Positions 8,744 through 63,772 of a DNA stretch of 64,000 nt are shown here, one piece after another. The notes under the pieces are model-generated. The model was not told the origin of the DNA. It made no database searches and saw only the letters and a list, made by a program, of their open reading frames with translations. The translations under genes were made by a program, and so were the position numbers. Numbering within the stretch: position 1 is the stretch's first letter; every line of letters starts with the position of its first letter. Source of the stretch: a bacterium (GTDB lineage Bacteria > Patescibacteriota > Minisyncoccia > Phycocordibacterales > JAKAEA01); assembly GCA_021818465.1 (NCBI GenBank), contig JAKAEA010000002.1, positions 31,882 to 95,881 on the forward strand. Reading direction: 5' to 3'.

Positions 8744-9334
8744 TTAATTTTGAGCAATCAGATTAGGCGGTATGGCAACGTTTGTCCCCACCGTCACGCC
8801 CGTAGCAGCAGCCGTTCCAGCATCTGCCTCAATAACATACATCGCCTGAGAAAAGCTAGTTGGTGCAAATACGGTCGGATAGGTACTTGTTGCCACATTC
8901 TCTTTCATATAGATAACCTTTCCTGTTTTATCAAGCCAAAAAATATCTAGTGGAAAATTCATACCTTTCATCCAAATACCCCAGTTACTCGCCGATGGAA
9001 ATACAAAGAGCATCACGCTATTTGCTGGTAAATTTTGCTGATATGAAAGACCGAGCTCTCGACTAGCTAAACTCGTGACAATGTCAGCAGAAAACACTTT
9101 TCCATTAAGCATCACCGTATTGGGTGCACTCGTAAGAGCTAGTGGAGTGTGCGAACTCTGCGTTGCTGTTGTCCCTGCCGATTGCGTATCTGACGATGCG
9201 GTAAATTGACTATTATCGACAGACGCCGCTTGTATTTTTTGAGCTAAACCATGAAATACCAGCACAAATGTTGGTACAAAAAATCCTAAAAAAACGAGAG
9301 CCGCCACACCACCGAAAAGAAGAGCTTTAATCAT
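8744..9334 (-). CDS. DUF192-family protein with N-terminal membrane anchor
   Basis: FPLDIFWLDKTGKVIYM matches the conserved DUF192 (COG1430) core; N-terminal TM helix. Confidence 0.6.
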   Translation of the reverse strand: MIKALLFGGVAALVFLGFFVPTFVLVFHGLAQKIQAASVDNSQFTASSDTQSAGTTATQSSHTPLALTSAPNTVMLNGKVFSADIVTSLASRELGLSYQQNLPANSVMLFVFPSASNWGIWMKGMNFPLDIFWLDKTGKVIYMKENVATSTYPTVFAPTSFSQAMYVIEADAGTAAATGVTVGTNVAIPPNLIAQN

Positions 9335-9370
9335 ATGTGTATTGTGACATAGCCCGCAAGAACGAGCAAT

Positions 9371-10756
9371 TTACTTTCTACGCCAAAAAAATGTCGCGAG
9401 ATGTAATTTCTCAGGCACGCGATTGAGATATGGAATATAGGGAAACAAAATGAGTAAAAGAACCAATGCGCCAAGAATTTCCGCGCCATCTCGATCGCCA
9501 TTAGGATCATTGGCGAGCACAGTATGATCTAACACGCCAAGCGGCGCCAGCCACCATGCTCCTGGTGGAACACTGCGCCCTTCCTCGTGAATCATTCCCC
9601 ACTGGTCGGTTGTTATGTGCAAATCACTCGCTTCATCATCCATCACACCAGTATCATCCAAGAAACGGAGTGAGTAGGTTGGCGCAATCGTGGGCGCTTC
9701 AGCATCCACTACCGCCTGATAGGTACCGCTGCTACTCATATGTACGAGCGATGTAATAACTGAAAGAAAGGGATTACCAATTGTAGACGTGGCAACTGAT
9801 GCGCCCTGGAAATACGCTTCGGCAGTTGTAATATCACTTTTTTGTTGAGCGGCCGACTCAGCAAAAAATACCGTCAGCTCATTGGGACCACCCGCAAGCG
9901 CCACGTACTGATCGTACGGCTTCACAATATACACCGTGCGCGTATTAAATGTGTAAGGATCAATAGAATCAAAATAGGTTGCTGTATCAGAGGTGTGATT
10001 AAATTCAGCAATAAGTGTTTGGGCAACACCGGCAGCATCGTCGGCAGCCACAGAAGCAATGGTAGCTGGTGTAATAAGCGGCGAAGGAAAAATAATTGCT
10101 AAAACAACAATGCACACCACAAGAACCCCACCTCGCACAAAAAGCTTTGTGTGATTTGCTGGCACAATCGGCACACGCACATCCTGCCGATACGGCGATG
10201 CAATGCCACGCGCTTTCACTAAAAGATAGTGCGTCAGCAGCAGGCCAAGCATAATGAGTGGAAGAATAACGATATGCAGACCGAATACTTGGAGATGGTT
10301 AAGTGTGTTTATATAATAGCCAAGATACGCACCATTCCAAAAATCAGCACCTTGTAAAGCGCGATATTGGGAAGAAAAATCACCACGCAAGTAATAACCA
10401 AATTCTGCTTCAAGTAATAAAAATACAAGCACGATAGCTCCCAGCGTCCACGTCAATCGACGTGGATGTTTAAAACCGCTCGTGGCAAATACCACCAACA
10501 GGTGCAACAAAATAATGAGAACGAACGCCTGCGCCGCCCACAAGTGAATGCTACGAAACAGAATTCCCCAAAAATTTATTGTCCACCACGCACTCCCCTC
10601 AAACACCATAACCAGACCAGTACCAAGCAAGATTGCAAAACACACCAATCCCAAAAATCCGAGTGAATAAAAAATACTATTGCCGTAGCGCGGCACATCA
10701 GTAATAAAAATTTTTTTTCTAATAATGCCGAGCACGCCTGGCGTATCGTTCTGCAT
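9371..10756 (-). CDS. Cytochrome b/b6 N-terminal-domain protein fused to a large extracytoplasmic domain and a terminal TM helix
   Basis: FRSIHLWAAQAFVLIILLHLLVVF has two His 14 residues apart (helix B heme ligands). PRRLTWTLGAIVLVFLLLEAEFGYYL parallels QcrB/PetB PRELNWIVGVLIF...GYLLPWD. HLQVFGLHIVILPLIMLGLLLTHYLLVKARGIASP parallels the helix-D His-containing segment. This is followed by about 250 non-hydrophobic residues and a final TM helix. Confidence 0.6.
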   Translation of the reverse strand: MQNDTPGVLGIIRKKIFITDVPRYGNSIFYSLGFLGLVCFAILLGTGLVMVFEGSAWWTINFWGILFRSIHLWAAQAFVLIILLHLLVVFATSGFKHPRRLTWTLGAIVLVFLLLEAEFGYYLRGDFSSQYRALQGADFWNGAYLGYYINTLNHLQVFGLHIVILPLIMLGLLLTHYLLVKARGIASPYRQDVRVPIVPANHTKLFVRGGVLVVCIVVLAIIFPSPLITPATIASVAADDAAGVAQTLIAEFNHTSDTATYFDSIDPYTFNTRTVYIVKPYDQYVALAGGPNELTVFFAESAAQQKSDITTAEAYFQGASVATSTIGNPFLSVITSLVHMSSSGTYQAVVDAEAPTIAPTYSLRFLDDTGVMDDEASDLHITTDQWGMIHEEGRSVPPGAWWLAPLGVLDHTVLANDPNGDRDGAEILGALVLLLILFPYIPYLNRVPEKLHLATFFWRRK

Positions 10757-10804
10757 AGTAGATAGATGCAGTATACCAAACCACCACTATGTGCTGCCAG
10801 CTAT

Positions 10805-13219
10805 TTACGCAATATCCAAGAGTTTTTGAATACCGCGTATTCTTTTTATTGCTTCAATAAGTATAAAACTTAGAATTGCCCCAATAATGATGAGCCAGAA
10901 AAAGAGCGGTGGCAATGGCGCGATAAAGAGACCCAGCCCGGCCACAATTGTTGAAAATGCCAATGAAAAGAGTAATGCAATAATGAGAATGCTTTTAGGT
11001 CGCACACTCCAACTAAACGGCCACGCTCGAATAGCAAGCAGTGTCGTAGCACCAAGGTAGATGAGTGACAAGTACACAATGGTTCTAATCGTATTAAACG
11101 GATACCGCATATGCCAAGCAATGACATATAAACTCATAGTAAAAATGTACGGAATAACGGCAATAAAGAACGCAGCAATGATGAGATTGCGAATATTCCA
11201 GCGAGCTGGATGATGAATAGGACTGGTATGATCAGTAGATATAGAAATGGTAACGAAGTCATTTGATAGAAGAATCAGAATAGCAATGAGCGGCGAGAGA
11301 ATGTATGAGTGTGTCAAAACAAAAATAACTGTCGCAATAAAAAGCGATTCCACTGATTTTATAACCTTATTTAAAGCCCACGTACGAATTCTAAAATACA
11401 CCCGGCGACCAGCCGTCACCACTCGCCGCACCCCCTCCAAACCAGGTGTCGTGAGAATGAAACTGGCTGCTTGCTTAGCAACCTCCGTTGCGCCCAACAC
11501 AGCAATGCCCACTTCCGCGCGGTGTAATGCCGGCGCATCATTCACACCATCACCAGTCATGCCAACTGAATGTCCAGCCTTCTGCAAAGCTTCAATAATA
11601 ATGAGCTTATCCTCGGGATATGCTTCAGCAAACACTACACCAGTAAGAGCGATGCTGGGGTTTTTATGTAATTCAGCAGGTGTAAACACGTCTCCCTCTA
11701 GTCCGAGACTGCGAGCAACCGCTTGCGCTGTTATTCGTCCATCGCCCGTAATCATTACCACGCGTACACCTAAACCGTTGAGTTCTTTAATTAATGCTGG
11801 AGCATCAGGACGAATCGGATCACTTAAACCAATAAGACCGACACACTCCTTAGGCGCACCAACCTCACCAGCAACAACAGCCAGAACTCGCAATCCATCA
11901 TCGCTCATGCGCGCGACATCCTGCAAAGCTTCGGGAGCGAAATGTACATCATTCGTCAGCAACAAATCCGGCAAACCCATTTGTATGTGTATATGCTTAT
12001 CTCCTTCAAGCACCTCAGCTTCTGTTCGCTTTGTTGATGGATCAAACGGTGTAAAACTCAAACGTTGCGGAGCGGTAAAACCTTCCGTTGCTGCTTTTTG
12101 TAAAATTGCCTGGTCAATAGAATTTTCATCAGCCGCATCGCTCGCTGCCGAGGCAAGCATGAACACTCTTTTTTCATCATTTGTACCATAATATTTTGTT
12201 GCCGAAACCGCTAGTTTATTTTGGGTCAACGTACCAGTTTTATCACTACAGAGCACATCAATAACCGCTGCTTCTTGCACAGCCCCCAATCGACGTACTA
12301 ACACGCGCCGATCATCACCATCACTACCACCATCTCCCGCATTAAGTTGGAGCGCGCCATAGGTTTGAGCAACCGCAAACATTGTCGGAAACGCAATAGG
12401 TACCGACATAAGCATAAGCACAATGACGTAATTAATAATTTGTAGTGCGGGCGCATGCACCAATACGCCAAAGATAATAACCCCGAGTGCTACCAACATG
12501 TTCAAAATAAAAAAGTATTTGATGATAGCAAATACCACCTTTTCCATATGCGTTGGTGGATGAGCCACTTGGAGAAGCTCTGTTGTTTTGCCGTAGCGCG
12601 TCGCTTTACCAATAGTGGTTACTGCCACCGTTGCTTCACCGCGGCGCACAATGCTACCTGAATACACCGTATCGTGTACGGTCACATCCTGTGGCAATGA
12701 TTCACCAGTCAAACTAGAAAGATCAACACTCACATTGCCATCTAAAATTTTTGCATCAGCAGGAACAACGTCACCAGCCCGAATACGCACCACATCCCCT
12801 GGTAAAAGTTCTCGCGCTGCCACCACCTTCCAATTACCACTACGATTAACACGCGCTTCAACTTGAATTGCTTTGCGTAATGTCGCCAACGCCTTATCAG
12901 CCGAGCGGCGCTGTAAAATATTGATAGCGCTGTTCACAAAAAGCAAAACAACGATAATGAGTGCCTCAACCTGATTACCTGAAAAATAGGTAATGACCAC
13001 CATGAGCTCCAAAAGCCACGGTAATGGACCCCAAAAATTTTTAAAGTAGAGCAGAAGTAAACTCTCATGATACTCCGGTAGCTCGTTCCATCCATAGCGT
13101 GTTCGTAACGCTGTAATATCCGAATCTTGTAAACCTGTATGCGTATTTTTAGGAGTACCGTTTGTCGTTAGCATCATTTCTAACCATACCAAATTTTTCA
13201 AGACAGCGTCAATAAACAA
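10805..13219 (-). CDS. P-type ATPase, type III-like (plasma-membrane H+/Mg2+ type)
   Basis: CSDKTGTLT phosphorylation site, TGES, MTGDGVNDAPAL hinge and 10 predicted TM segments. The N-terminus (WNELPEYHESLLLLYFKNFWGPLPWLLE) resembles P3A proton pumps. Confidence 0.88.
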   Translation of the reverse strand: MFIDAVLKNLVWLEMMLTTNGTPKNTHTGLQDSDITALRTRYGWNELPEYHESLLLLYFKNFWGPLPWLLELMVVITYFSGNQVEALIIVVLLFVNSAINILQRRSADKALATLRKAIQVEARVNRSGNWKVVAARELLPGDVVRIRAGDVVPADAKILDGNVSVDLSSLTGESLPQDVTVHDTVYSGSIVRRGEATVAVTTIGKATRYGKTTELLQVAHPPTHMEKVVFAIIKYFFILNMLVALGVIIFGVLVHAPALQIINYVIVLMLMSVPIAFPTMFAVAQTYGALQLNAGDGGSDGDDRRVLVRRLGAVQEAAVIDVLCSDKTGTLTQNKLAVSATKYYGTNDEKRVFMLASAASDAADENSIDQAILQKAATEGFTAPQRLSFTPFDPSTKRTEAEVLEGDKHIHIQMGLPDLLLTNDVHFAPEALQDVARMSDDGLRVLAVVAGEVGAPKECVGLIGLSDPIRPDAPALIKELNGLGVRVVMITGDGRITAQAVARSLGLEGDVFTPAELHKNPSIALTGVVFAEAYPEDKLIIIEALQKAGHSVGMTGDGVNDAPALHRAEVGIAVLGATEVAKQAASFILTTPGLEGVRRVVTAGRRVYFRIRTWALNKVIKSVESLFIATVIFVLTHSYILSPLIAILILLSNDFVTISISTDHTSPIHHPARWNIRNLIIAAFFIAVIPYIFTMSLYVIAWHMRYPFNTIRTIVYLSLIYLGATTLLAIRAWPFSWSVRPKSILIIALLFSLAFSTIVAGLGLFIAPLPPLFFWLIIIGAILSFILIEAIKRIRGIQKLLDIA

Positions 13220-13256
13220 ACTGTTAATATAGTTCTTTTATACATTGTCTAAACTT

Positions 13257-14399
13257 TTACTGATACTGAATAAAAATAGGTCGCGGCCGCAACGAAAGAA
13301 TCTCTCGTGGCGTCATAAGGTGACTACCGTTGGCCACATCGTTTTTATAAAATATTTTTATACCGGCAAATTGAACTGGCTCGGGATAGATAATTTCGTT
13401 ATAAACCTTAGTCTTTTGTGCAGGTGTACCGAAACCATCCATATCCATAACTATCTCGGTTTGCGGTAATGGCGTAATATCCTGATAATTGGTCACCATA
13501 GACTTAGTAAAACGGTGCACCACAAGAAATTTTGGTGGCAAATTGTATTGTGTAACAAGGTGCGCAAGATATCGTGCCGCAAAATTTATATCCGAAGCAT
13601 CCAAAGAACCGATGGCGGTACCGGGGCGTTTAGGCGGCTGGAGAGCAAATTCTGGATCTAAAGCCAATTCAACATTCGGCAATTTTAGATATGGTTCAAG
13701 CAACGGTACCTCTTGCTCTACCGTACTCCAACCAACTTGTACATCTAAAATGACTAAACCGTGCACTTGGTTTGCTAACTGTATTGCTTCTTCAATACTG
13801 CTCGATGCCATGCGCAAGCGATACATACCATTTGGCCCTGGACTTCCCTGTGCTGAAACGGCTATGTAATCCAGAGCTGGTATCACCGGCGTAGCTGGGT
13901 CAGCAGCTTTCCATTGGGCCACCTGATTCATAAGGCGCGTAAGCATTTCCTGTGGCGGATATTGTCCCAAAATACCCATTGCTGGAGAAAGAAAATTACC
14001 ATAATACGCCACCACTCGATTAAATGGCAAAATAGCACCATACGCAGGATACGCTGCATGGGCAGGCCAAAGATATGTGGGCTGCCGCACAATAGTTGAG
14101 GAAGCCCGGGCAGCACTCGTGCTTGCTACAAAAGAAGGTGCGACTGGATTGTTCGCCAACTCTTCCATCAATTTGTTATACAAAGCTATATTCAGCTGTG
14201 GTTGAGGTGGTGGTGGGTCTATTTTGGGTGGATCTACTTTTATAGGGGGCACGTGGTAATACACCACTGGATTAAAAAAAGCCGCATGGTCGGCAACAAC
14301 TACAAACAAGACAACTACAATAAAGAGCACGGGCATCAGAAGTCCCCACACAATCGGATACTTTTCTTTTGATTTTTTACTCTTTTTAATAATAGACAA
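13257..14399 (-). CDS. Membrane-anchored hypothetical protein with Pro-rich linker and a possible hydrolase-like extracytoplasmic domain
   Basis: N-terminal basic stretch plus TM helix, PPIKVDPPKIDPPPPQPQ linker, then a 280-aa globular region with no motif I can name confidently. Confidence 0.45.
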   Translation of the reverse strand: MSIIKKSKKSKEKYPIVWGLLMPVLFIVVVLFVVVADHAAFFNPVVYYHVPPIKVDPPKIDPPPPQPQLNIALYNKLMEELANNPVAPSFVASTSAARASSTIVRQPTYLWPAHAAYPAYGAILPFNRVVAYYGNFLSPAMGILGQYPPQEMLTRLMNQVAQWKAADPATPVIPALDYIAVSAQGSPGPNGMYRLRMASSSIEEAIQLANQVHGLVILDVQVGWSTVEQEVPLLEPYLKLPNVELALDPEFALQPPKRPGTAIGSLDASDINFAARYLAHLVTQYNLPPKFLVVHRFTKSMVTNYQDITPLPQTEIVMDMDGFGTPAQKTKVYNEIIYPEPVQFAGIKIFYKNDVANGSHLMTPREILSLRPRPIFIQYQ

Positions 14400-14599
14400 A
14401 AGTATATCAATAAAGTGTCGTTATAGACATATTGGAAAACTAGCCAATATAAATTACTGCGATTATGGTGACGTTTCAAACGTTTAAAGCAAGACTGTTT
14501 GAAATGTTTTTTAACCTATATTGTCTATATAGGTGCATGGCCTAGTATCAAGGTAAAAAGTAATTATAGGTCGATAATTACTATAGTAATAGCTTAATT

Positions 14600-15553
14600 A
14601 TGAGTATTATGAATATAACGAACATACAACGAACTCTACTCGGGGTGTTTCTTGGTGGCATCATGATTCCAGCATTAACTTTTGCGGCAGGTGGAAGTGG
14701 TGGCGGTGGCGCTAGTGGTGGCGGGACAGGAGGAGTTGGTACGAGTGTAAACGTAAACACGGGTATCCAGCAACAAGATCAAACGCGTGATCGTATTCAA
14801 GATCCAACCACGCATACAGGCGATGAGCCACTACAGACGCGTGATCAGGATCGTGATCGTCTCTATCTTTATCAAAGTACCACCACAGTACCAATGGGAG
14901 CTGGACAAATGAATCAAAATCAAGGTGTTGTACCGAGTCTTGGTAGTCAATATCAATATGGACAACCGATGCCAACCGCAACCACGGGTCAAGGCACCCA
15001 AACCCAATATCAATATCGACTCCAAATAGACCCTGAGCATCTACAGATACAAGCAGGTAATGCTGCACAATTGCAGCAAATGGTGCAAACACGCGAACAA
15101 GAACTCACACAAGAAGCATCGACAACTCCCACACAAAACCGTACAGCGGTACAAAACGCAAATCGTACACGCCTTGCAGTCTATGCTGTGATGGCAGCTC
15201 AAAATATGCTTCCGGCGACTATCGGTCAACAGATGACGCAACTCGCCAATCAAATAAATGCCTCAATCCAAACTTCAACCACTCTTGAAGCGCAGATGGA
15301 GAATAGAGGTTTCTTGGAGCGACTCTTATTTGGTGGTGATACCAATTCCGCACAAACACTTGCACAAATATCCAACGAAAACCAAGCGAGAGTCCAATAC
15401 ATGATGCAGTTACTTTCACAAGCGAGTTCAACACCAGACGTGCAAGCACAACTCCAGACACAACTCCAGACCATACTACAAGAGCAGCAACAGCTTCAAA
15501 ACCTTGCTCAACAAGAACAAAACCGATGGGGCATCTTTAGTTGGCGTTTGTGA
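14600..15553 (+). CDS. Secreted Gln/Thr-rich low-complexity protein
   Basis: Signal/TM segment followed by a Gly-rich stretch (GGSGGGGASGGGTGG) and a long Q/T-rich region with repeated QxQxQ and LQxQ patterns. Terminator-like hairpin plus T-run downstream. Confidence 0.5.
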   Translation: MSIMNITNIQRTLLGVFLGGIMIPALTFAAGGSGGGGASGGGTGGVGTSVNVNTGIQQQDQTRDRIQDPTTHTGDEPLQTRDQDRDRLYLYQSTTTVPMGAGQMNQNQGVVPSLGSQYQYGQPMPTATTGQGTQTQYQYRLQIDPEHLQIQAGNAAQLQQMVQTREQELTQEASTTPTQNRTAVQNANRTRLAVYAVMAAQNMLPATIGQQMTQLANQINASIQTSTTLEAQMENRGFLERLLFGGDTNSAQTLAQISNENQARVQYMMQLLSQASSTPDVQAQLQTQLQTILQEQQQLQNLAQQEQNRWGIFSWRL

Positions 15554-15581
15554 TGTGGTCTACGCACCTCGTAAAAACTGC

Positions 15582-15612
15582 CGGGCACTCCCCGACAGTT
15601 TTTAGTAGCGAT
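15582..15612 (+). terminator. Imperfect rho-independent terminator for the 14600..15553 gene
   Basis: CTGCCGGGCACTCCCCGACAG imperfect stem-loop followed by TTTTT. Confidence 0.35.
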
Positions 15613-15769
15613 AATATGTGTACTGACTAAAAAAGAAATTAACATTCAAAAATACCATGATTAGAATATTATCCATTATTTTTCTCATATGTTTTGTACT
15701 GTACTTTTTTTTATTTCTATTTTTAAAGATTGTAATGTACACGCTCATCTTTATATAAATATATAAAAG

Positions 15770-15795
15770 GAGCACTCGCGAATAATCGAGTGCTC
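15770..15795 (-). terminator. Rho-independent terminator for the 15808..16437 gene
   Basis: Perfect 9-bp inverted repeat GAGCACTCG-N8-CGAGTGCTC immediately 3' of the stop codon, followed on the minus strand by a T/A-rich run (CCTTTTATATATTT). Confidence 0.45.
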
Positions 15796-15807
15796 AAAGA
15801 TTAACTA

Positions 15808-16437
15808 CTATTTCATAACAGTAGCCAATCGCAGCGTAGGATACTTGTCCTCATCCCAACAATCACGTATATGAATTTTGTCGAGACTAACACCAACACA
15901 GATACGAAAATGTGATTCTAAATCAACACAGCGAATGTAATTTTCCTTAAATAACCGTTCCTTCGTAGCGAGATAATGGCCGATTATGGTGTAAATCAAA
16001 ATTCGAGCAGTTGGTATTTCCTCGTCGTTCGAGAGAAGTGTCTGCTGTTCACTCCAGGTCTTTGATGCCGATCCATTGACTGGCCTCTTGCGAACCAACT
16101 GCCAACCAATTTCACCTTTGTTTTGAAAAAACACTGCTTCTTCGTAGTTATATTCTTGATGAAATAAGTCTAATTTTTGTACGGTACCATATATATTGGC
16201 AATTGATAGTGGGAAAACAGCAACGAGGACATGACTATCCTTGCAGGCATTCAACGTTTTCTCGCTGAATGGAATTTGAGCAAGCGCAGCAAACTGGCGC
16301 GTAGTAGGATTAACCCCGAAGTGTTTGGCGGCTGCCTCGATGCCGAAAAAGTTGCGACCCATAATCTTGCAGGCAGTCTCATGAGATGACATTTCGTAGT
16401 TCTCGTTTAGAACAGATTCTGAACTGATTGTAGACAT
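15808..16437 (-). CDS. Hypothetical protein (209 aa, no recognisable family) in an AT-rich island
   Basis: Clean ORF with a terminator hairpin 3' and a structured AT-rich leader 5'. Codon usage by eye is more AT-rich than the flanking housekeeping genes. Confidence 0.45.
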   Translation of the reverse strand: MSTISSESVLNENYEMSSHETACKIMGRNFFGIEAAAKHFGVNPTTRQFAALAQIPFSEKTLNACKDSHVLVAVFPLSIANIYGTVQKLDLFHQEYNYEEAVFFQNKGEIGWQLVRKRPVNGSASKTWSEQQTLLSNDEEIPTARILIYTIIGHYLATKERLFKENYIRCVDLESHFRICVGVSLDKIHIRDCWDEDKYPTLRLATVMK

Positions 16438-16666
16438 GACATTCTCCTTTGTTATTAACCCTGAAGGGTCCTGAACAAATCTCCACGTAACCTGGGAGAT
16501 GAAGGTCTCAGTCTCGTTTAAGATGAGCTTTTTGTATCCTTGTAAAGACGCAAAAAGCTCACCTCAAGCAATAATTTACTTTCAAAGAACAGCCATAAAA
16601 TACAATATATTTCATCATTTGACAACAACTCGTAAAAAATCAGTAATATTATTACTCTCAAAAGTA

Positions 16667-17392
16667 CTAATTCTTCATCGCCTGCCTTTTAAGCTGCATG
16701 GGCATTTTTTCTATCGCATATCGTAGCGCAGTTCTCGGCATGTTGGTTTTACGCGTCATCACAAAAGCAAACACTTCTTTCTGATGATGAATCGACGTCG
16801 CTTTTAACAGCCAGCCGTAACCTTTTTGAACCAAGTCTTCCCCACTACACAGTAACGTGTCTACTACTTCGAAAATATCTTTTAAATTATGTCGCGTTGC
16901 ATACACAGCATTACTGGTGGTAATAAAACTCACTGCCGAAGCTCGTTGCGCCCAAATATTTTTTGCGCCTGCCCACCCTTTTACGGTATCAATTAGTTCC
17001 GGATATTTCTCAAGCATAGGATGAATAATGTGTAGACAAAAATCGTCATCCTTGCTCCAGTTATCTATATAGGTAAACAGTCAACCTTCAAAAACTTTAA
17101 AATCTTCTTTTTTGAAACGACCAATGAGTGCACTAATCCATTGTATGGCAACTGTCGCCTCCTCGTTGTATTTATTTTCCAGTAGTTTTTCGCTTAAAGA
17201 AAAAATCTGCCCAGTATCCAAATTTCGAATTTGTTTGAAATATTTTTTTGCAATCGTACGAACCATAGGAGTTCGCACACCGTACATAACAACGTTTTCC
17301 TTAAAGAACTTTTGACTGCTGGCACGATGTTTGGCGGTGCTCTCTTTTAACAATTCCTGTCGAATAGTGTCTACAATATTCATAGATGTCAT
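16667..17392 (-). pseudogene. DNA alkylation repair enzyme (AlkD/AlkC HEAT-like family) interrupted by one in-frame TGA
   Basis: Track ORFs 17081..17392 (KFFKENVVMYGVRTPMVRTIAKKYFK) and 16667..17017 (GYGWLLKATS...RTALRYAIEKMP) are the N- and C-halves of one AlkD-like protein. Both are in the same frame; hand translation of 17018..17080 shows a single TGA at 17081-17083 and no other stop. Confidence 0.6.
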
Positions 17393-17555
17393 CTTCTAAC
17401 TTTTAAAAAAGAAATACGAATAAACACATATAAATATAAATAATTTTTCTTTGGTGTACTATTTTATATAGTATATATGTTTGCTGTATAAAATATAAAT
17501 CACTAGTAAAACAAAGGCGCCTAAACCGTCGGCATAGTTCGATAAAAAGTGCTGT

Positions 17556-17643
17556 TGGCGGAGGGTAAGAGATTCGAACTCTTGGTGGGTTTCCCCACAC
17601 ACGCTTTCCAAGCGTGCGCACTAGACCACTATGCGAACCCTCC
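17556..17643 (-). tRNA. tRNA-Ser (anticodon GGA), class II with long variable arm, CCA encoded
   Basis: Hand-folded cloverleaf: acceptor GGAGGGT/ACCCTCC; D-stem GCA/TGC; anticodon stem CACGC/GCGTG with loop TTGGAAA; variable stem GTGGG-GAAA-CCCAC; T-arm AAGAG-TTCGAAT-CTCTT; discriminator G; CCA. Confidence 0.85.
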
Positions 17644-38649: not shown

Positions 38650-39933
38650 ATGTTTTCTGAGCTACGAAACCGCACGTATCGTTTTTTGCGCTGGAGCGAG
38701 CGTTATACAAAAATGGACATGATCTACTTGACATCTGGAAGTTTTTGGGCCGTATTTGGACAATTCTCTGCAGCCATTATTGCCTTTGGACTAGCAATTG
38801 CCGTAGCGCGTTTCGTATCCAAAGACGTCTACGGTACCTATAAATACGTTTTAGCTATCGTTTCAGTTGTCGCTACCCTTTCGCTAAGTGGCATTGGTCA
38901 GGCCGTCTTTCAATCCATCACTCGCGGCTTCCGTCGCTCGCTCTCCGACGGATTCTGGGCAAATTTACGCTGGAGTTTTTTAGTTTTTATAATCACTCTT
39001 ACTGTTGGTGGATACTACCTTTTCCAAGGCAATCAAACACTTGGTTTGGGTATTTTACTTGGTGGCTGTATAACACCATTTCTTTCCGGCTTTAATTTAT
39101 ACACATCACTCTTCTCTGGTGAAAAAGATTTTCGACGCGCAGCATGGTATGGCGACGTTGTCACCAACATCATTCCCGCACTCACCTTGATAGCGGTTGC
39201 CCTTATTGCTCCCACTGCACTCAATTTGGTTATCGCCTATTTTCTCGCAAACCTTGCTGCTGCTGCATATAGTTATTGGCGCGGCACACGACATTATCGT
39301 TCAACAGCCGATGCTGCACATGATCCTGATCTACTTTCGTATGGCAAACACCTAAGTTTAATGGCCGTCTTAAGTGGCATCGCTGGCAATATTGACCAAC
39401 TGCTACTTTTTCACTTTGGTGGCGCTATTGATCTTGCTATCTATAATTTTGCCATTGCTATTCCTGATCAAGCAAAAGGCCCTCTTAAGCAACTCGATAC
39501 GATGACACAAGCTCGTTTTGTTAATCGAACTACTCATGACATTCATACGAGTTTGCGTAACAAAATGCTGTGGCTCACTGCAACAAGTATTATTACTATA
39601 AGTGTTTACGTTATAGTCGCTCCATTCATCTACCAATTATTTTTCCCTGCGTACAGCATTGCTGCTGCGTATTCTCAAATTTATGCACTATCATTATTCT
39701 CAATGATTATAAGTCCTGCTGCTTCATATCTTTCAGCAAAAAAACGAGTACGAGCTCTGTATGTTAATACTTTCGGCAGTTCCATCTTACATATCGGACT
39801 TATGGTAATTGGTGTAGTTTGGTTTGGTTTATGGGGTTTAATTATTGCTCGCGTTTTCATTCGACTTGGTGGTGCTCTGTTATCACTTGGACTCTATTAC
39901 CGAACGACGCGTCTTGAACGAAAAACAATATGA
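38650..39933 (+). CDS. Polysaccharide biosynthesis protein / oligosaccharide flippase (Wzx, MOP superfamily)
   Basis: 427 aa with about 12-14 TM helices and Wzx-like topology. The stop overlaps the start of the downstream methyltransferase (ATGA). Confidence 0.6.
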   Translation: MFSELRNRTYRFLRWSERYTKMDMIYLTSGSFWAVFGQFSAAIIAFGLAIAVARFVSKDVYGTYKYVLAIVSVVATLSLSGIGQAVFQSITRGFRRSLSDGFWANLRWSFLVFIITLTVGGYYLFQGNQTLGLGILLGGCITPFLSGFNLYTSLFSGEKDFRRAAWYGDVVTNIIPALTLIAVALIAPTALNLVIAYFLANLAAAAYSYWRGTRHYRSTADAAHDPDLLSYGKHLSLMAVLSGIAGNIDQLLLFHFGGAIDLAIYNFAIAIPDQAKGPLKQLDTMTQARFVNRTTHDIHTSLRNKMLWLTATSIITISVYVIVAPFIYQLFFPAYSIAAAYSQIYALSLFSMIISPAASYLSAKKRVRALYVNTFGSSILHIGLMVIGVVWFGLWGLIIARVFIRLGGALLSLGLYYRTTRLERKTI

Positions 39934-40862
39934 AAAATATTCCATGTATATTGTGTGGAAAAAATAAAGCGGATACCGTAAAACGTCTGCGTGATATGCA
40001 TATGTATATTGATAGATCTACATTTACTCTTGTTCGCTGTCGCCAATGTGGTCTTATGTACCTAAATCCTCAACCAACAATAGAAGAATTGGCTCGTTAC
40101 TATCCTCCCCATTATTCTGCATACTGCAATGAAGTATCAGTTTTTGGACAAAATTATTTTTACAACGTTCTGCGACATATAAAACGTTTTTTTACATCGC
40201 ACCGTTCCATAAAAGTTTTTACAAAACTACACAACGATAACTCGAGTAAAACCGTTTTAGATTTCGGTTGTGGCAATGGCACCTACCTCTTAGGTTTACG
40301 TCACAACCACCCATCATGGAAACTATATGGTTCAGATATTCAAATAAATGAAACAGTAAAAAATGCACTTGAGAAAAATACTATCGTAACAATAATAGGA
40401 CCAACACACCTACCTTGGAAACAATTACCAACAAAAAGTTTTGATCGCATAACTCTTTTTCAAGTATTAGAACATGTAAATAATCCTCGTGAGGTTTTGG
40501 AAAATCTTCGACCGCTGCTTAAAAAAGATGGGGAGTTGCATATTGAAGTTCCTAATATTGCTACCTTAAAATTTAAAATTTTTGGACGTTATTTTTCCAA
40601 TCTTGATGCCCCGCGCCATCTCTATCATTTCTCACCCAATACACTTCAGCGTCTTTGTGAGCAGTGTGGTTTCCGTATTACGAAACTAGAGGTATCCGGC
40701 ACCACAAAAAGCACCGTACGCAGTCTATATAATTTGTTTCATATTCACAATCGCCAACTTGATCCGTTACTCTATAGTCTTGTGGATATACTCACAAAAT
40801 ATATCGGTAAAAATCGCCTTAATACCGAAGCGTTAGAGGTTAGATGTGTACCTGCCAAATAA
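39930..40862 (+). CDS. Class I SAM-dependent methyltransferase with N-terminal zinc-ribbon (CxxC...CxxC)
   Basis: CILCG...CRQCG zinc ribbon followed by the VLDFGCGNGTYLLGL SAM motif I. Confidence 0.7.
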   Translation: MKNIPCILCGKNKADTVKRLRDMHMYIDRSTFTLVRCRQCGLMYLNPQPTIEELARYYPPHYSAYCNEVSVFGQNYFYNVLRHIKRFFTSHRSIKVFTKLHNDNSSKTVLDFGCGNGTYLLGLRHNHPSWKLYGSDIQINETVKNALEKNTIVTIIGPTHLPWKQLPTKSFDRITLFQVLEHVNNPREVLENLRPLLKKDGELHIEVPNIATLKFKIFGRYFSNLDAPRHLYHFSPNTLQRLCEQCGFRITKLEVSGTTKSTVRSLYNLFHIHNRQLDPLLYSLVDILTKYIGKNRLNTEALEVRCVPAK

Positions 40863-41810
40863 TTTTTTTAACCAATGATATGGGCGTGGATAGTGCCATT
40901 TTAAAAACCATTTAAAACGTTGCATGTGTGTGCGGCCAATACCAAAAACATATTGAGAAGTGTACCGTTCCGCTTGTTGATTAATTACGAAAAAGTTAGG
41001 GTGCTTGAGTGGAAACATCATTGATTCGGATGGGATATTGGCAAGTGGATCATTTGGATTTTTTGCTGAGACTGCCTCTTGTCCAAAACCAATATTGGTC
41101 ACGAGATTAACACACGGATTAATGCAAAGACCACCTTGCGACAAAACTGCAAACGTCCACTGTCCATCCCATGACCGAATGCGATCTTCGTAATAGTCTT
41201 GGAAACGTTGTTCCCAACGGTAGGCTACCGCTGGATCAGAAAAGATATTGTATGTCAGTTGTTGCTTTCGTGCTTCAGGCCAATGCTGTACGTCAGGATC
41301 ATAATGCACCCAAGCACGTCGCCAACTTGCCCAACCCCAAATATGCGGGATGTGCGAAAAATAATAACTTTCTCGACAAACAAATTTTTTATTATTTTGT
41401 TGAAAATTATTACCACCAATATGCATCACCCGCGTATCATCAGCATAACGTTCTAAAAGTTCTTCGCAAAAACGAAAAAAACTCTGATTTGGTAAACAAT
41501 CATGCTCAAGAATAATAGCGCGTTCTTCGTTTTCAAAAATCCACTGAAGACCAGTTGCTAAACGACGTTTTACGTCCATGTGTTCTGTAGCATAATTAGT
41601 TCGCACTTCACACCAATCAATTTTCTCCACAAGCGCTTTGCTAGCAGCAAACCTTGCCTTATCTGCGGGCGTTTGCCCTTCATCACAAAAGCAATAGAGT
41701 ATTTTCGGCCGCGCTTCTTTAATGGCAGCAATCACACGCGTCAGTGTTTCGGTTCGATTAGAAAGCACGAGAGCAACGGGTGTGTGTAGTTGATATATTT
41801 TTTCATTCAT
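40833..41810 (-). CDS. Putative glycosyltransferase (GT-A-like; HlpA/EPS-cluster-like), family uncertain
   Basis: 325-aa soluble protein inside the glycan cluster with DxD-like acidic motifs (ILEHDCLP). Internal Met at 41810 (MNEKIYQL) is the likely start. Assignment is by context and weak resemblance only. Confidence 0.35.
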   Translation of the reverse strand: MNEKIYQLHTPVALVLSNRTETLTRVIAAIKEARPKILYCFCDEGQTPADKARFAASKALVEKIDWCEVRTNYATEHMDVKRRLATGLQWIFENEERAIILEHDCLPNQSFFRFCEELLERYADDTRVMHIGGNNFQQNNKKFVCRESYYFSHIPHIWGWASWRRAWVHYDPDVQHWPEARKQQLTYNIFSDPAVAYRWEQRFQDYYEDRIRSWDGQWTFAVLSQGGLCINPCVNLVTNIGFGQEAVSAKNPNDPLANIPSESMMFPLKHPNFFVINQQAERYTSQYVFGIGRTHMQRFKWFLKWHYPRPYHWLKKLFGRYTSNL

Positions 41811-43050
41811 AAAAAGCAGTATAGACTTTTTCTGTGCGTTGCACCCAATCATCTAGAGAAAAAAGATTTTTGACTCTTTTATAACCAGCTATTCCTAATG
41901 TGTGTTGTAATTTTTGATCAGCAAGAATTTTTTCTAGAGCAACAGAAAAAGCATGTATATCGTTCGGATCAATAATGAATCCTGTTTCTCCATTTTTTAC
42001 CATTTCAGGAGTACCGCCCCAACATGTGCCCACAACTGGTTTACGAGAAGCCATCGCTTCCAACACAACCGTCGGTAATGGATCAAGATAAAGGGATGGC
42101 ACCACAACAACACTCGCCGCCGCGTATATTGTCGTCAGCTCATCACCACTAAGCCAGCCCATGCTCACCACGTTTTCTTTCATTCCCCACGCTGCTGCTT
42201 GTTGTATTAGTTGATTACTATATGCAGTAGATGCACCAAGAAGTACGAGAGTCGCTGATGGTTCTTTATGTATCACGTGTCGCATCGCTTGTAGTATTAC
42301 ATTACCACCTTTAGAAGCACTTATTCGTCCACCAAACAACACAATTCGCTTTTGTTCTAGGTGATTTTTTTTAATATACACATCTACTTGCTGTACTTGC
42401 ACATCCCATGCCTCTACAGCAATACCGTTATGTATCATTGCAATATTATGAATACCATTTTCTTGTAACGCACTTTGGAGAGCATTACTAACAGCAAATA
42501 TTTTATGAACATTTTTTAATAAAATTTTAATAAAAATATTTCTAAAAGGATTGTATCGGAATCGGTATTCACACCACTGCTGCCATGCTGATAACACATA
42601 ATTCCCTTTTTTATTTTTAAAAAGTTTTCCGTAATGCACAAGCATTGCATCATGTGCGGTTAAAAAGACTTTTGCACCACTTCGATGTGCTTGATGAAGC
42701 GTCCAATACGACAAATGATAATGAATATTGTGCGCATGCACTACATCTGGTTTTATTTCTCTAAGCAAACGACTCACTGTTGAAACTGTTGTTGGATTAT
42801 ACAGGCTTCGCCACCCTCGCCAACGCTCGGTGTAGTTAGAATATATCCGCTCTACTCGAATCCCATCTTCGTAAAATGTGCCTGTATGTGCACGATTTCC
42901 AACCGCAGTAATAACAGTTACTGTATGCTTTCGCCGAACAAGTGCACGAGCAAGCGTATGTGCAACAATCCCTGCCCCACCCTTAGCATATGGTGGAAAA
43001 TCGTCTTGAAGAAAAAGTATGTTCATTTTTTTTGAAATACTGCGCACCAC
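41803..43050 (-). CDS. Glycosyltransferase family 4
   Basis: N-terminal GGAGIVAHTLARAL Gly-rich motif and C-terminal Glycos_transf_1 (LVLLGAS...; EAMASRKPVVGT). Confidence 0.8.
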   Translation of the reverse strand: MVRSISKKMNILFLQDDFPPYAKGGAGIVAHTLARALVRRKHTVTVITAVGNRAHTGTFYEDGIRVERIYSNYTERWRGWRSLYNPTTVSTVSRLLREIKPDVVHAHNIHYHLSYWTLHQAHRSGAKVFLTAHDAMLVHYGKLFKNKKGNYVLSAWQQWCEYRFRYNPFRNIFIKILLKNVHKIFAVSNALQSALQENGIHNIAMIHNGIAVEAWDVQVQQVDVYIKKNHLEQKRIVLFGGRISASKGGNVILQAMRHVIHKEPSATLVLLGASTAYSNQLIQQAAAWGMKENVVSMGWLSGDELTTIYAAASVVVVPSLYLDPLPTVVLEAMASRKPVVGTCWGGTPEMVKNGETGFIIDPNDIHAFSVALEKILADQKLQHTLGIAGYKRVKNLFSLDDWVQRTEKVYTAFYE

Positions 43051-52479: not shown

Positions 52480-54256
52480 TGAGAATATTGCGCAACACTG
52501 ATTCCGGCACTTCTTGTGTCTCGTGTACTGGGCGTGTATTTTTTTCGGCAACTGTAGCAGGTGTGTCAGATTTTTTTTCTTCTTTTTTAGGCGCCGCGAC
52601 AGATGTGGGGACGGCTCGTGACAGTGCTGATGCCGTTGACTGTTTTTCTTTTACTGCTGCTTCAATTGCGTTTCGTAACGCATTTTTATTTTCTGTCGAT
52701 AGCGTTTTTGTAGTAGCATTCGACGTGAAAGGATGCGGCGTCGGGGAACTAGGGCGAGGCTGTGACGGTGGTACCACAGGTGGTTGATGCGGTTTGACCT
52801 GCTGCTGTGGCCGCGCACCATCTGCCGCCGGTCGCTCAAATTTTCTATCACGTGAGCCACGGTTTTCCTGAGAAGAACCAATACCATTTTGCTGCTGACG
52901 GGAACTTGGTGGCGACACTATTGGCGCATGCCAATCGCGAATTATTTTCTCAACATCTGCGCGCGGCCGAGCAAAAAATTCTCGCGAAAAGGTAATCACA
53001 TCTTCCTTGAAAGAGACCGTGGGCGCATCAATGGGTGGCAAGGTGCGTGCCGAAAATGGCTGCGATGTGACACCATCAATCATCAACTTTAAATAAATCT
53101 GTACGAATCCCAAATTCACCAAATCCTCCTTAGTAAAAGTGGGGAAAAATTCTTTCTCCAGTACCTCGGCATCGTAGGCACCAACACGAAACACAATCAT
53201 GGTGCCCACGTTGCCAAACACAGCCGCTCGCACCTCTTCACTCATTTGCTCAATATACTGATGGGCAATCGTGAGATTGAGTTTGTATTTGCGGGCTTCT
53301 GAAAGAATATCAGCGAATGACTCATTGGCGAACGATTGAAATTCATCCACATACAAATAGAAATTCGGCAATGCTTTTTGCGAAGCGCCAGACACGTCAG
53401 CACGCGACATTGCCGCCAAATAAATTTTGGTAATAATCATTGAGCCAAGCAAGTTGGCATTCATTTCCCCCACTCGCCCCTTAGATAGGTTAATAATAAT
53501 AATTTTTCGCTCATCCATCATTGCGCGTAAATCAAATGTGGACTTTGATTGACCGATAATGTTGCGTACCAGCGGATTAGACACAAATTGACCGACTTTA
53601 TTCTGAATTGCCGCAGTTGCATCGGTAGCAAGTCGGTCGTTATATTTAGCAAATTCATCTGTCCAAAATGCTTTTACCGAAGGATCGGTAACCTTTTCCA
53701 CCACTTTATTTCTATAAGCCTTGTCAGCAAACATTCTGTTAACGCCCAAAATAGTCGCGCCAGGATATTCCAAAAGAGCCAGGAGTGCATTGTTGAGAAT
53801 GTATTCCATGCGCGCACTCCATGCATCCACCCAAATTTTCTTAAACGCACTCATAAGACCACTCACCACCAAGTGGCGCTTATCAAAACCAACATCTTCC
53901 ATAACGTTAAAAGCGATCGGATATTCCAGATCAAATGGCGCGAAATAGAGCACATCCTTCATCCGCTCCGGCGGAATGTAATCAAGCAGAAGTTCAGCTG
54001 TTTTACCGTGCGGATCAATAAAAGCCAATCCTTCACCAGCAGCAATATCTTGAATGGCCATATTTTCTAATACCGTCGACTTACCCATACCGGTTTTGCC
54101 GATGATGTAGGTATGACGTGAACGATCATCGCTCTTAATGCCAAAAGGGATACGCTGACCACGGCTATCTGTTTCAGCAAAATAGGTTATCCGATTACCA
54201 TTAATAACTGGCGGCGTCTTTTTATTTTCATGGTTACGAGGAGGCATACGATACAA
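52466..54256 (-). CDS. TraG/TraD/VirD4-family or HerA/FtsK-like P-loop ATPase (type-IV-secretion-coupling-protein-like), soluble, with Pro/Gln-rich disordered C-terminal tail
   Basis: Walker A YIIGKTGMGKST; downstream hydrophobic-DE Walker B (LYVDEF); about 430-aa ATPase core followed by about 160 aa of low-complexity P/Q/S tail. No TM helices and no other T4SS genes nearby. Confidence 0.55.
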   Translation of the reverse strand: MYRMPPRNHENKKTPPVINGNRITYFAETDSRGQRIPFGIKSDDRSRHTYIIGKTGMGKSTVLENMAIQDIAAGEGLAFIDPHGKTAELLLDYIPPERMKDVLYFAPFDLEYPIAFNVMEDVGFDKRHLVVSGLMSAFKKIWVDAWSARMEYILNNALLALLEYPGATILGVNRMFADKAYRNKVVEKVTDPSVKAFWTDEFAKYNDRLATDATAAIQNKVGQFVSNPLVRNIIGQSKSTFDLRAMMDERKIIIINLSKGRVGEMNANLLGSMIITKIYLAAMSRADVSGASQKALPNFYLYVDEFQSFANESFADILSEARKYKLNLTIAHQYIEQMSEEVRAAVFGNVGTMIVFRVGAYDAEVLEKEFFPTFTKEDLVNLGFVQIYLKLMIDGVTSQPFSARTLPPIDAPTVSFKEDVITFSREFFARPRADVEKIIRDWHAPIVSPPSSRQQQNGIGSSQENRGSRDRKFERPAADGARPQQQVKPHQPPVVPPSQPRPSSPTPHPFTSNATTKTLSTENKNALRNAIEAAVKEKQSTASALSRAVPTSVAAPKKEEKKSDTPATVAEKNTRPVHETQEVPESVLRNILNGGE

Positions 54257-54353
54257 AAAATTATACTATAAAATTCGTTGTTTTAGAAGGTGCTGTGACA
54301 CATTGCATACGGCGGTCAAAAGAAGTACTCTATAGACATACTTACCCATACTA

Positions 54354-55502
54354 TTGTACACGCATATGGCTCTTGAAACATATCAACAAGAACAAGAACG
54401 ACACAGTACCCCAGCTCAACCCGCACAGCCGGTAGAAAACCTATATAGTCTGAAAACTGTACTACGCAATCCTGAACTGAATACTCTTTTTAGTAAATAT
54501 ATATCATTACAAAACGATGATGCGCACAAAAAAATATTCGCGCATTTACATTCTGAAAACCCCAATCTTTCAAACGATGAAATGGATGTTTTGAAACAAT
54601 TAGAGGATGGATTTTCAAAACACATGCGCGCCGTTGATACTTTCAAACAACAACTAACCCCAAAAATAATTACTGAAATGGGTCGAGATCCTCGTTTCAA
54701 AGAACTGATTCAACGACTCGGGGGCGAATCGGAAACAAAGAATTTTTTTACCAAAAACGTAGCCGAATGGAGTGTAAAAGAACCTTCTCTTCTTAATGCT
54801 ATTACTCAGAGCATAACCGAGCTTCAAGCTTACGAAAACGGTGAATTAAAAACGCTTAACGATGAAATTGTGAAGCGCTGTAAAGAAGAAAAAATCAACG
54901 TTAATGCATATATGAGAGTTATGGCAATTAAAGATGACGCTGAACGACAAGAAGCTTTAAAAAATTTTATGAGAAATGTGCAAGGAGAACGGGGCTTGGT
55001 TAAAAAAGGCCTTGATTGGCTACGGGGAGAATCTTCAAAAGATATATTGAAACGTTTATTAGAACCTGGTGCCAGAAAAGAAGATATCGATGATCATTTA
55101 AGAGAACTTCAACAACGCAAACAATCTTTAGGCCAGATACTTGCAGCAAGTATTGAAAACAACCAAACTGTCCGTACATCATTTGTGCGAGATATATTGG
55201 GAACATCTCTTGTACAAGAACCAGGAATGAAAGAAGCTGCACAAAAAATTCGTGAAGCTGCACAGATTAACAATAACGATTTGCAGCGCTTTTGGAGAGA
55301 GAAAAAAATAGAAATAATAAAACAACAAGGGAAAGGGGCTTGGAGTCAAATTCCCAAGAACGAACAAGAGCAAATACGAAAAGAATTTATTCAGGATATT
55401 TTTGAAAAACAAAAAGCAAAAATCCAAAAACCAGGTTGGTTTGATATTTTGGAATATTTATTTGATATGTTTTTTACTATTGATAAAAATTCACTACAAT
55501 AA
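54354..55502 (+). CDS. Hypothetical Lys/Glu-rich alpha-helical protein (382 aa), AT-rich codon usage
   Basis: Long ORF with strongly charged helical composition and no recognisable motif. Divergent from the ATPase gene; stop overlaps the next ORF start. Confidence 0.5.
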   Translation: MYTHMALETYQQEQERHSTPAQPAQPVENLYSLKTVLRNPELNTLFSKYISLQNDDAHKKIFAHLHSENPNLSNDEMDVLKQLEDGFSKHMRAVDTFKQQLTPKIITEMGRDPRFKELIQRLGGESETKNFFTKNVAEWSVKEPSLLNAITQSITELQAYENGELKTLNDEIVKRCKEEKINVNAYMRVMAIKDDAERQEALKNFMRNVQGERGLVKKGLDWLRGESSKDILKRLLEPGARKEDIDDHLRELQQRKQSLGQILAASIENNQTVRTSFVRDILGTSLVQEPGMKEAAQKIREAAQINNNDLQRFWREKKIEIIKQQGKGAWSQIPKNEQEQIRKEFIQDIFEKQKAKIQKPGWFDILEYLFDMFFTIDKNSLQ

Positions 55503-55504
55503 CC

Positions 55505-55792
55505 ATGAACCAATCTTTACAAGAACAGTTTTTAAAAATTATAGAAACCGGTGATGAAGAAGCGGCTGAGAAATTTCTGATTGCGCACATACAGGAATTT
55601 TCAGAACCATTGCAAAAGAAAATCGCTTTTGCTTTTCTAGAAAAAACTGTACGCAAACAAACTACTGAAACCGAAGCTATTATAGATTTTCAAAAACAAG
55701 CACTGGCAGCATTTGATGACATAGAAAAAGAAGAGCGCATACTTACTGACAAAAAGAAAGAACTAGAGACCAGGGAGCAACTGGGGTTGTAA
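55505..55792 (+). CDS. Hypothetical small helical protein (95 aa)
   Basis: Start 3 nt after the upstream stop (translational coupling) with similar composition. Confidence 0.4.
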   Translation: MNQSLQEQFLKIIETGDEEAAEKFLIAHIQEFSEPLQKKIAFAFLEKTVRKQTTETEAIIDFQKQALAAFDDIEKEERILTDKKKELETREQLGL

Positions 55793-55812
55793 TTTTTCTA
55801 ATAACGCATATT

Positions 55813-60784: not shown

Positions 60785-60815
60785 GTCAGTAGAATCAAAA
60801 AATCATCAATTAATT

Positions 60816-61100
60816 TTATTTTTTCGCCACCAAAAGAGATTTTATCTTAATGAGCTCGTGCACAAGTGATTCGAGTCGTTCCGATTCAGCGGTCAACACA
60901 TTACTGGCCTGATCAAACCTAACTAATCTGGCAAGCAATAACTTATACACGTCGTTATAGTATTGCTCTAAAATGGAAATTGTTTTGGATTCAGTTCGGG
61001 ATATTGTCGTATGTTTAATTTTTACGTCACGCTCACTGTCACGAATTAAGAACAATGGTTTACTAATAACGTAAGGACTCTTTAAAGTGGTTATATTCAT
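60816..61100 (-). CDS. Hypothetical small protein (94 aa)
   Basis: ORF between murD and radC on the same strand; predicted helical C-terminus; no recognisable family. Confidence 0.3.
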   Translation of the reverse strand: MNITTLKSPYVISKPLFLIRDSERDVKIKHTTISRTESKTISILEQYYNDVYKLLLARLVRFDQASNVLTAESERLESLVHELIKIKSLLVAKK

Positions 61101-61144
61101 ATTTTTTCGACTGCGCTTTTTAACGAAGCCGTATTACATACTAA

Positions 61145-61930: not shown

Positions 61931-62052
61931 ATAGATAAAATTATTATTAAAATATACTAAAGAAAAAATAAAATAACCCTATAAGCAACATTTTTTAAAC
62001 TTAGACAAGTGTCCAGTAAAAAATATATAGTACAAATCGCCATTACCTAATA

Positions 62053-62137
62053 TGGTGGGCACGGAGGGATTTGAACCCTCAACCCTTTCGGGATACGCTT
62101 CTGAGACGTACGCGTATGCCAATTCCGCCACGTGCCC
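62053..62137 (-). tRNA. tRNA-Leu (anticodon CAG), class II, CCA encoded
   Basis: Hand-folded: acceptor GGGCACG/CGTGCCC; anticodon stem TACGT/GCGTA with loop CTCAGAA; long variable arm TCCCGAAAGGGT; T-arm GAGGG-TTCAAAT-CCCTC; discriminator A; CCA. Confidence 0.85.
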
Positions 62138-63698: not shown

Positions 63699-63772
63699 CT
63701 CATCCACTAAAACTTCTTACGATAGTATCAAAACCATTCTCTCTGGTCAAGAATACCTGTTACGCTGTTTAG

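Follow-up and report, generated by a model that had tools for sequence, protein, structure and literature searches.

We analysed a window of 64 kb from contig JAKAEA010000002.1 (assembly GCA_021818465.1), which is 100% identical to contig DAIEME010000002.1 of GCA_027341405.1 (L002), a metagenome-assembled genome of the Patescibacteria (Paceibacteria/Parcubacteria-type). The window as a whole has a GC content of 44% and is ~90% coding. Our focus is an AT-rich stretch of about 2 kb that ends at the 3' end of a tRNA-Ser(GGA) gene and contains an alkD-like gene broken by a stop codon and a gene for a protein of 209 aa (Table 1). An initial annotation of this DNA had interpreted the stretch (15560-17555) as a decayed horizontally acquired islet. 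Comparison with related genomes leads us to a different reading, in which these 2 kb are probably the tRNA-proximal end of a recombination-prone slot, with a recently broken alkD and a decoupled target gene of a diversity-generating retroelement (DGR), rather than an integrase-borne island.

Table 1. Features of the tRNA-Ser(GGA) locus and of the adjoining variable slot (window coordinates; aa, amino acids; TR, template repeat; VR, variable region; RT, reverse transcriptase)
Feature	Coordinates	Strand	Basis or remark
tRNA-Ser(GGA)	17556..17643	-	ARAGORN; Rfam tRNA 55.4 bits; fixed right-hand boundary of the slot
AT-rich spacer from tRNA 3' end to alkD start	17393..17555	-	GC 0.258 (25%); presumed alkD promoter and leader
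alkD-like gene, PF08713	16667..17392	-	single frame of 242 codons with one TGA
Premature TGA in alkD	17081..17083	-	at the position of near-invariant Trp W104, TGG -> TGA
Leader of the 209-aa gene, 229 nt	16438..16666	-	structured; hairpin 16513-16570
Gene for the 209-aa protein, short form of a DGR target family	15808..16437	-	N-terminal helical part and C-type-lectin/FGE-like domain
VR-equivalent, last ~120 coding nt of the 209-aa gene	15811..15930	-	drifted, without a matching TR
Intrinsic-terminator hairpin of the 209-aa gene	15770..15795	-	9-bp stem followed by a U-run; terminator scan
Convergent intergenic spacer, 31% GC	15554..15807	.	position of TR, avd and RT in complete cassettes; none found here
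Segment without counterpart in L004, 4.4 kb	13136..17555	.	alkD, 209-aa, Q-rich and 380-aa genes; blastn breakpoints
Q-rich gene, 317 aa	14600..15553	+	
380-aa gene	13257..14399	-	
P-type cation ATPase	10805..13219	-	inside the slot
Cytochrome-b-like membrane protein gene	9371..10756	-	PF13631/PF00033; inside the slot
DUF192 gene	8744..9334	.	Pfam; far boundary of the slot
Whole variable slot, tRNA-Ser to DUF192	9335..17555	.	ORF clustering over ~55 loci

Searches of Pfam, NCBIfam, PHROGs, PADLOC and the PDB sequences gave no match for the 209-aa protein, which had been described as an orphan without a recognisable family. This description has to be revised. More than 200 homologues share 45-59% identity with the protein, and a profile search returned 3,073 cluster representatives of the family, including 705 at E <= 1e-30. 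The named members are nearly all from Patescibacteria; most of them have a length of ~254 aa, and short forms of ~200-215 aa, such as the one in the window, are common. The family fold is a C-type-lectin domain, which carries a C-terminal VR. This fold is common to the DGR variable proteins Mtd (Bordetella phage BPP-1), TvpA (Treponema denticola) and TaqVP (Thermus aquaticus), although the sequence identity between the family and the solved DGR variable proteins is 5-11%. The family also differs from Mtd, TvpA and TaqVP in having its own N-terminal helical module, and it has no Pfam model. Several of the characterised variable proteins are displayed on the surface, whereas on inspection by eye neither the window protein nor the family consensus has an apparent signal peptide or membrane anchor.

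The genomic contexts of the family were obtained by a scan of metagenome contigs, which returned 45 loci. Twelve loci repeat the last ~40 codons of the target gene ~350 nt downstream of it (a TR of ~120 nt), and in nine of these loci tblastn identified an RT gene just downstream of the TR. For example, the cassette on contig L099 comprises a target gene (250 aa), a TR, a bAvd-like gene (PF22296, E = 1e-14) and an RVT_1 domain (E = 1e-18). The TRs of the family are rich in AAC codons. Using a pairwise aligner, we aligned 11 TR/VR pairs, in which 174 mismatches fall at TR adenines and 73 elsewhere (100 and 14, respectively, for the six pairs that are cleanest). In addition, two paralogues on contig L085 are identical over their last ~130 nt except for eight codons, all of which are NNC in both copies, as mutagenesis of AAC codons would be expected to produce. 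The 209-aa family is a variable-protein (target) family of DGRs that is Patescibacteria-wide and cellular. This agrees with Roux et al. 2021 (PMC8144416), who described a cellular DGR clade that occurs only in Patescibacteria and found VRs to lie systematically on C-Lec folds.

Apart from the DGR components, no conserved neighbour of the family was found in three genomic contexts (near ThrRS and DnaE, among hypothetical proteins, and among pilus genes). A phage origin of the family was considered and rejected, as no relative was detected on the IMG/VR viral contigs. Many of the scanned contigs stop inside the VR or shortly beyond it. Six of them (L089, L093, L094, L096, L102 and L114) end within, or no more than ~90 nt after, the 3' end of a family gene. 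Such contig ends at the VR are as expected of population-level hypervariability or of the VR/TR repeat in short-read assemblies.

In contrast to these cassettes, the copy in the window stands without TR, Avd and RT. Our repeat, RT and integrase searches cover the 64 kb of this genome that are represented in the window, which reaches ~16 kb from the gene in one direction and ~48 kb in the other. Within this range, a search of six-frame translations with the family hidden Markov model (HMM) gave no second hit that could represent a TR, sensitive blastn detected no repeat of the 3' 233 nt (15808-16040), and tblastn with the RT from contig L115 found no RT. The VR-equivalent of the window gene is ~50-60% identical to the TRs of the family, with mismatches spread over all four bases. 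Over the 88 nt aligned with the best family TR, the identity amounts to 0.61 for non-A and 0.57 for A positions, a comparison that is blunt since these TRs are not cognate to the gene; for cognate TR/VR pairs, the identity is 0.90-0.99 at non-A and 0.23-0.61 at A positions. The protein retains 62 of the 77 columns that are at least 90% conserved (81%), whereas family members retain 96% on average, with the 5th percentile at 91%. In the VR scaffold, the window copy departs from the >=95% consensus at G176 (deleted), F183V, G187K, L188I and G203R, and two codons are deleted in its VR-equivalent. The gene sequence is shared at 100% identity by three assemblies (the window, L001 and L003).

The flanks of the gene were also compared with those of its homologues. 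The latter have a VR-proximal hairpin followed by a GC-rich GAGC...GCTC-UUUU terminator, whereas the window copy has only the terminator. The initial annotation had correctly delimited the gene by a structured leader and a hairpin terminator: the RNA fold of the leader has a z-score of -3.6 with a strong hairpin, and the terminator stem was recovered by the terminator scan. We looked for a known RNA element in the leader and spacers and rejected this possibility, because an Rfam search of these regions returned only the tRNA and sub-threshold chance matches, e.g. a spurious mir-208 match on the hairpin. The leader was also considered as a remnant of the N-terminal ~45 codons of longer family members and rejected, since the open frame upstream of the ATG fails the family profile and short forms are common. 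Because there is no TR, Avd or RT beside the gene, its scaffold has drifted, the adenine signature is missing and the sequence is identical in three assemblies, the window copy is probably decoupled from its retroelement, a frozen target that is inactive in diversification.

The second gene of the AT-rich stretch is alkD. Both halves of its product match PF08713 (profile positions 1-91, E = 6e-16, and 115-213, E = 2e-26), and the linker between them is conserved in frame. With its full-length PF08713 match, the gene resembles that of AlkD from Bacillus cereus, a HEAT-like-repeat glycosylase for alkylated bases, and differs from it by the TGA interruption at the codon of conserved Trp104. As noted previously, the gene is broken by a single in-frame stop codon. 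This TGA aligns with a near-invariant Trp of the close homologues (W104, motif 'FE.WL'), and, apart from W104, all columns that are invariant in these homologues are retained, including W112, D116 and W194. We considered an alternative code, with UGA read as Trp or Gly, and excluded it. Among the 52 long open reading frames (ORFs) of the window, 33 end with TAA, 11 with TGA and 8 with TAG; the frames terminated by TGA include neighbours of alkD, and thus the standard genetic code applies. L001 and L003 carry the same TGA base as the window, and the three assemblies may derive from the same reads. Promoter-like hexamers were observed at 17499-17461 in the spacer between the tRNA and alkD, as consensus matches only.

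The best homologue of the alkD product (P0121) is intact, has 256 aa, is 87% identical and is encoded on contig L088. This contig begins inside tRNA-Ser and aligns continuously with window positions 17622-16676 at 86.5% identity. Because the alignment is continuous, the adjacency of tRNA-Ser and alkD and the AT-rich spacer between them predate the split of the two lineages, for which the synonymous distance (dS) is ~0.44. The assumption of a recent acquisition of alkD is not compatible with this finding. The ratio of nonsynonymous to synonymous divergence (dN/dS) is 0.16 overall, 0.12 before the stop and 0.18 after it, and these low values on both sides imply purifying selection for most of that time. 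The nonsense change would thus be recent, or it may be tolerated via read-through. The homology with L088 stops at window position 16676, and the alignment places a predicted rearrangement junction at about this position, in or near the leader of the 209-aa gene. In L088, the intact alkD is followed by an ORF of insertion sequence (IS) type with an HTH_Tnp_1 domain and then by a VTT/DedA gene.

For the larger neighbourhood, we surveyed 80 HtpX loci from GTDB species representatives of Paceibacteria by tblastn and clustered the ORFs downstream of the tRNA over ~55 of these loci. Most of the 80 loci have the LemA-HtpX-tRNA-Ser(GGA) adjacency. The number of ORFs that separate tRNA-Ser from DUF192 ranges from 0 to 8, and these ORFs are mostly unclustered; in several loci DUF192 is followed by gap-rpiB-rpe-tkt, as it is in the window. 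In the window, this slot holds the alkD, 209-aa, Q-rich, 380-aa, P-type ATPase and cytochrome-b-like genes. The closest species representative (L004) has 86% amino-acid identity in HtpX and 82% in the ATPase. According to blastn, its homology with the window breaks exactly at the tRNA 3' end (L004 position 11882 corresponds to window position 17555) and resumes at 13135. Between these breakpoints, L004 carries a segment of 1.28 kb with a CsoR-type repressor and DUF4396, versus 4.4 kb in the window. The segment that differs from L004 is thus larger than the islet proposed initially, and it includes the 380-aa gene. This gene is not exotic, because its family is very widespread in the candidate phyla radiation (CPR), with at least 7,953 homologues in Patescibacteria. 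An empty site, which had been expected in the relatives, was not seen in L004, where csoR and DUF4396 occupy this place, or in L088, which has tRNA-Ser with the intact alkD.

Several other observations concern the content of the slot. In the Q-rich protein, a Gly-rich stretch comes after a hydrophobic N-terminal segment. The protein gave no Pfam or NCBIfam match, and tblastn against the 80 related loci returned no relative; its gene is a real candidate for a lineage-specific gene of the segment. The cytochrome-b-like gene and the P-type ATPase are adjacent in the slot and common to L004, in which they are preceded by the CsoR-type repressor and DUF4396, a grouping suggestive of a module for metal handling. 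For a Patescibacteria genome, a cytochrome b is unusual. On contig L064, a distant member of the 209-aa family (11463-12182, minus strand; 32% identity, HMM E = 4e-31) lies ~140 nt from the 3' end of tRNA-Ser(GGA) (11237-11323) in convergent orientation, and no TR was detected beside it. DGR-type RTs that are 47-55% identical to the L115 RT are encoded on L059 (16849-17571, minus strand) and L037 (20371-20877, plus strand), at 4.5 and 8.5 kb downstream of tRNA-Ser(GGA), respectively, which indicates repeated occurrence of DGR cassettes in this slot or close to it.

The composition of the locus was evaluated in 2-kb windows (mean GC 0.440, standard deviation 0.024). The initial annotation had judged by eye that 15560-17555 is more AT-rich than its flanks, and the computed values bear this out: the stretch has a GC content of 0.374, the lowest of any 2-kb stretch and among the lowest 0.2% of the 2-kb windows. 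The intergenic spacers named as especially AT-rich have GC contents of 0.254 (15600-15800), 0.356 (16440-16700) and 0.247 (17393-17550). The values for the genes are milder (0.419 for the 209-aa gene and 0.393 for alkD, compared with a range of 0.358-0.498 over the genes of the window). Much of the GC dip is explained by long intergenic DNA, as only 68% of the stretch is coding versus 90% of the window. By raw tetranucleotide distance, the window 15501-17500 ranks first among 249 windows of 2 kb. The lowest composition-normalised tetranucleotide correlations (ranks 1-8) belong to the windows that start at 14501-15751, ~2.4-3 standard deviations below the mean. Three other patches are nearly as low in GC, namely 53851-55846 (0.375), 39551-41546 (0.380) and 60051-62046 (0.387).

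Low-GC patches elsewhere, with genes of 0.36-0.41 GC, include a methyltransferase/GT4 glycosyltransferase cluster (39930-43050) and a gene for a 382-aa protein without a Pfam match (54354-55502), the latter with the second most deviant tetranucleotide profile of the window. Two further tRNA genes were noted toward the end of the window. A RadC-like JAB-domain gene (61145-61930, minus strand) adjoins tRNA-Leu(CAG) (62053-62137), and tRNA-Ile(GAT) (63772-63846) lies near the window end and suggests an rRNA operon that starts just beyond it.

Several of our findings weigh against the reading proposed here and have to be set beside the alternatives to which they lend weight. With regard to the segment as a whole, the first rank in tetranucleotide atypicality is compatible with a foreign origin of part of it. 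In addition, the only trace of a mobile element is the transposase-type ORF that follows alkD in a relative. The alternative in this case is a decayed horizontal islet that was inserted site-specifically into the tRNA-Ser 3' end and has since lost its integrase and attachment (att) sites. The lowest GC and most deviant tetranucleotides in the window, the end of L004 homology exactly at the tRNA 3' end, the differing slot content among relatives and the transposase ORF in L088 would all fit such an event, and tRNA-linked integrative islands likewise consist of variable, compositionally atypical DNA that starts exactly at a tRNA 3' end. However, as the initial annotation had already stated, neither an integrase nor a direct repeat of the tRNA 3' end is recognisable: there was no integrase Pfam match among the ORFs at 13.2-17.6 kb (alkD, 209-aa, Q-rich and 380-aa genes), and the tRNA 3' end has no exact repeat of at least 13 nt and no 18-30 nt match with 2-6 mismatches anywhere in the 64 kb. 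Also in contrast to integrative islands, the content in L004 has been replaced rather than inserted, alkD is a long resident that the window shares with a relative and that has evolved under purifying selection, and the variability of the slot extends over an entire bacterial class. The 380-aa gene comes from a family that is typical of CPR at large, and the other patches with GC as low as this contain ordinary genes for glycosyltransferases and methyltransferases. Thus, what remains of the islet proposal is atypical DNA at a tRNA 3' end that varies among relatives and contains a broken alkD, and we consider a site-specific insertion improbable.

As to the window copy of the DGR target family, its identity in three assemblies is weak evidence of missing VR polymorphism, as these assemblies may share reads, and TRs taken from other genomes make a blunt test of decay. 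About half of the family members seen also have no adjacent TR, and the L085 pair carries the NNC signature despite the absence of a TR within 8 kb. Moreover, the window ORF is intact and, with 81% of the conserved positions kept, may be fully functional, and a remote TR and RT outside the 64 kb could still target it. Such diversification in trans by a cassette elsewhere in the genome is in line with the remote DGR targets recognised in the literature (PMC8144416) and with the DGR RTs near HtpX-tRNA-Ser in other Paceibacteria (L037 and L059). On the other hand, an active target is hard to reconcile with the two codon deletions and the substitutions at >=95% conserved scaffold positions, with the lack of asymmetry between A and non-A positions against any known family TR, with the missing VR-proximal hairpin and with the lack of any TR or RT in the window; ongoing diversification in trans thus appears rather unlikely to us. 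Far less plausible is the suggestion of the initial annotation that the gene encodes a toxin, an abortive-infection protein or another conflict-system effector. The gene does stand alone between a structured leader and a terminator in a variable region, and DGR-diversified proteins are reportedly sometimes parts of conflict systems (PMC10907252). Nevertheless, neither the window protein nor three of its homologues matched PADLOC or PHROGs, the three contexts provide no conserved partner and the viral contigs no homologue, and the fold is that of a ligand-binding C-type lectin and not of a nuclease, a pore-forming protein or an NTPase.

The reading that we prefer, a recombination-prone slot with a broken alkD and a decoupled DGR target at its tRNA-proximal end, would account for the locus as follows. 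The slot extends from tRNA-Ser(GGA) to DUF192-gap-rpiB-rpe-tkt, within a backbone common across Paceibacteria, and its content would turn over by recombination, the two genes next to the tRNA being unrelated occupants. AlkD already stood beside the tRNA in the ancestor shared with L088, and the change from TGG to TGA at Trp104 would have come later, so that full-length AlkD may now be produced only through occasional read-through. In a complete cassette of the 209-aa family, the target is followed after ~350 nt by the TR, bAvd and RT; the RT would copy TR RNA with errors at adenines, and the resulting cDNA would overwrite the last ~120 nt of the target and thereby diversify the ligand-binding face of the C-type-lectin domain. 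Decoupled from this process, the window copy may have been retained as a frozen variant whose binding function is fixed, or it may be heading to decay.

One metagenome contig shows a discontinuity within the same tRNA gene. Contig k141_2213002 of ENA ERZ27237538 (L001), compared with window positions 5808-26334, is 100% identical from 5982 to tRNA-Ser, over at least 11.8 kb. Beyond the tRNA, it is ~73% identical to the window and 91% to L004, and the single mismatch on the identical side is at window position 17628, inside the tRNA. There are two explanations: either the assembly joined two sequences in the tRNA and L001 is a chimera, or L001 is a genuine recombinant between species.

A more far-reaching, tentative proposal, which we think could be right but is unlikely, is that tRNA-Ser(GGA)/DUF192 constitutes an integrase-independent exchange hotspot in Paceibacteria. 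Homologous recombination with its anchor in the tRNA gene would carry whole slot contents from one species to another, and the 209-aa gene would be a captured DGR target that was frozen after the loss of its template. The junction of L001 inside the tRNA fits this proposal. If it is true, and L001 is real and not a chimera, this contig would be a direct snapshot of inter-species exchange at a tRNA, and the 209-aa gene would be a naturally occurring case in which a hypervariable receptor has been fixed to a single specificity.

Our results do not overturn the current understanding, and the locus is an instructive but ordinary case of genome turnover. It illustrates that a compositionally odd tRNA-adjacent patch in a reduced CPR genome can be a long-lived variable slot and need not be an island. 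Of most use is the finding that the 209-aa family consists of DGR variable proteins, among which the window copy is probably a relic. A supposed orphan turns out to belong to a large family of Patescibacteria that is unannotated, with no Pfam or NCBIfam model, and consists of DGR targets, which helps to annotate thousands of CPR proteins. The window copy is a concrete instance in which a DGR target and its retroelement have been separated, and it bears on the retirement or fixation of hypervariable binding proteins.

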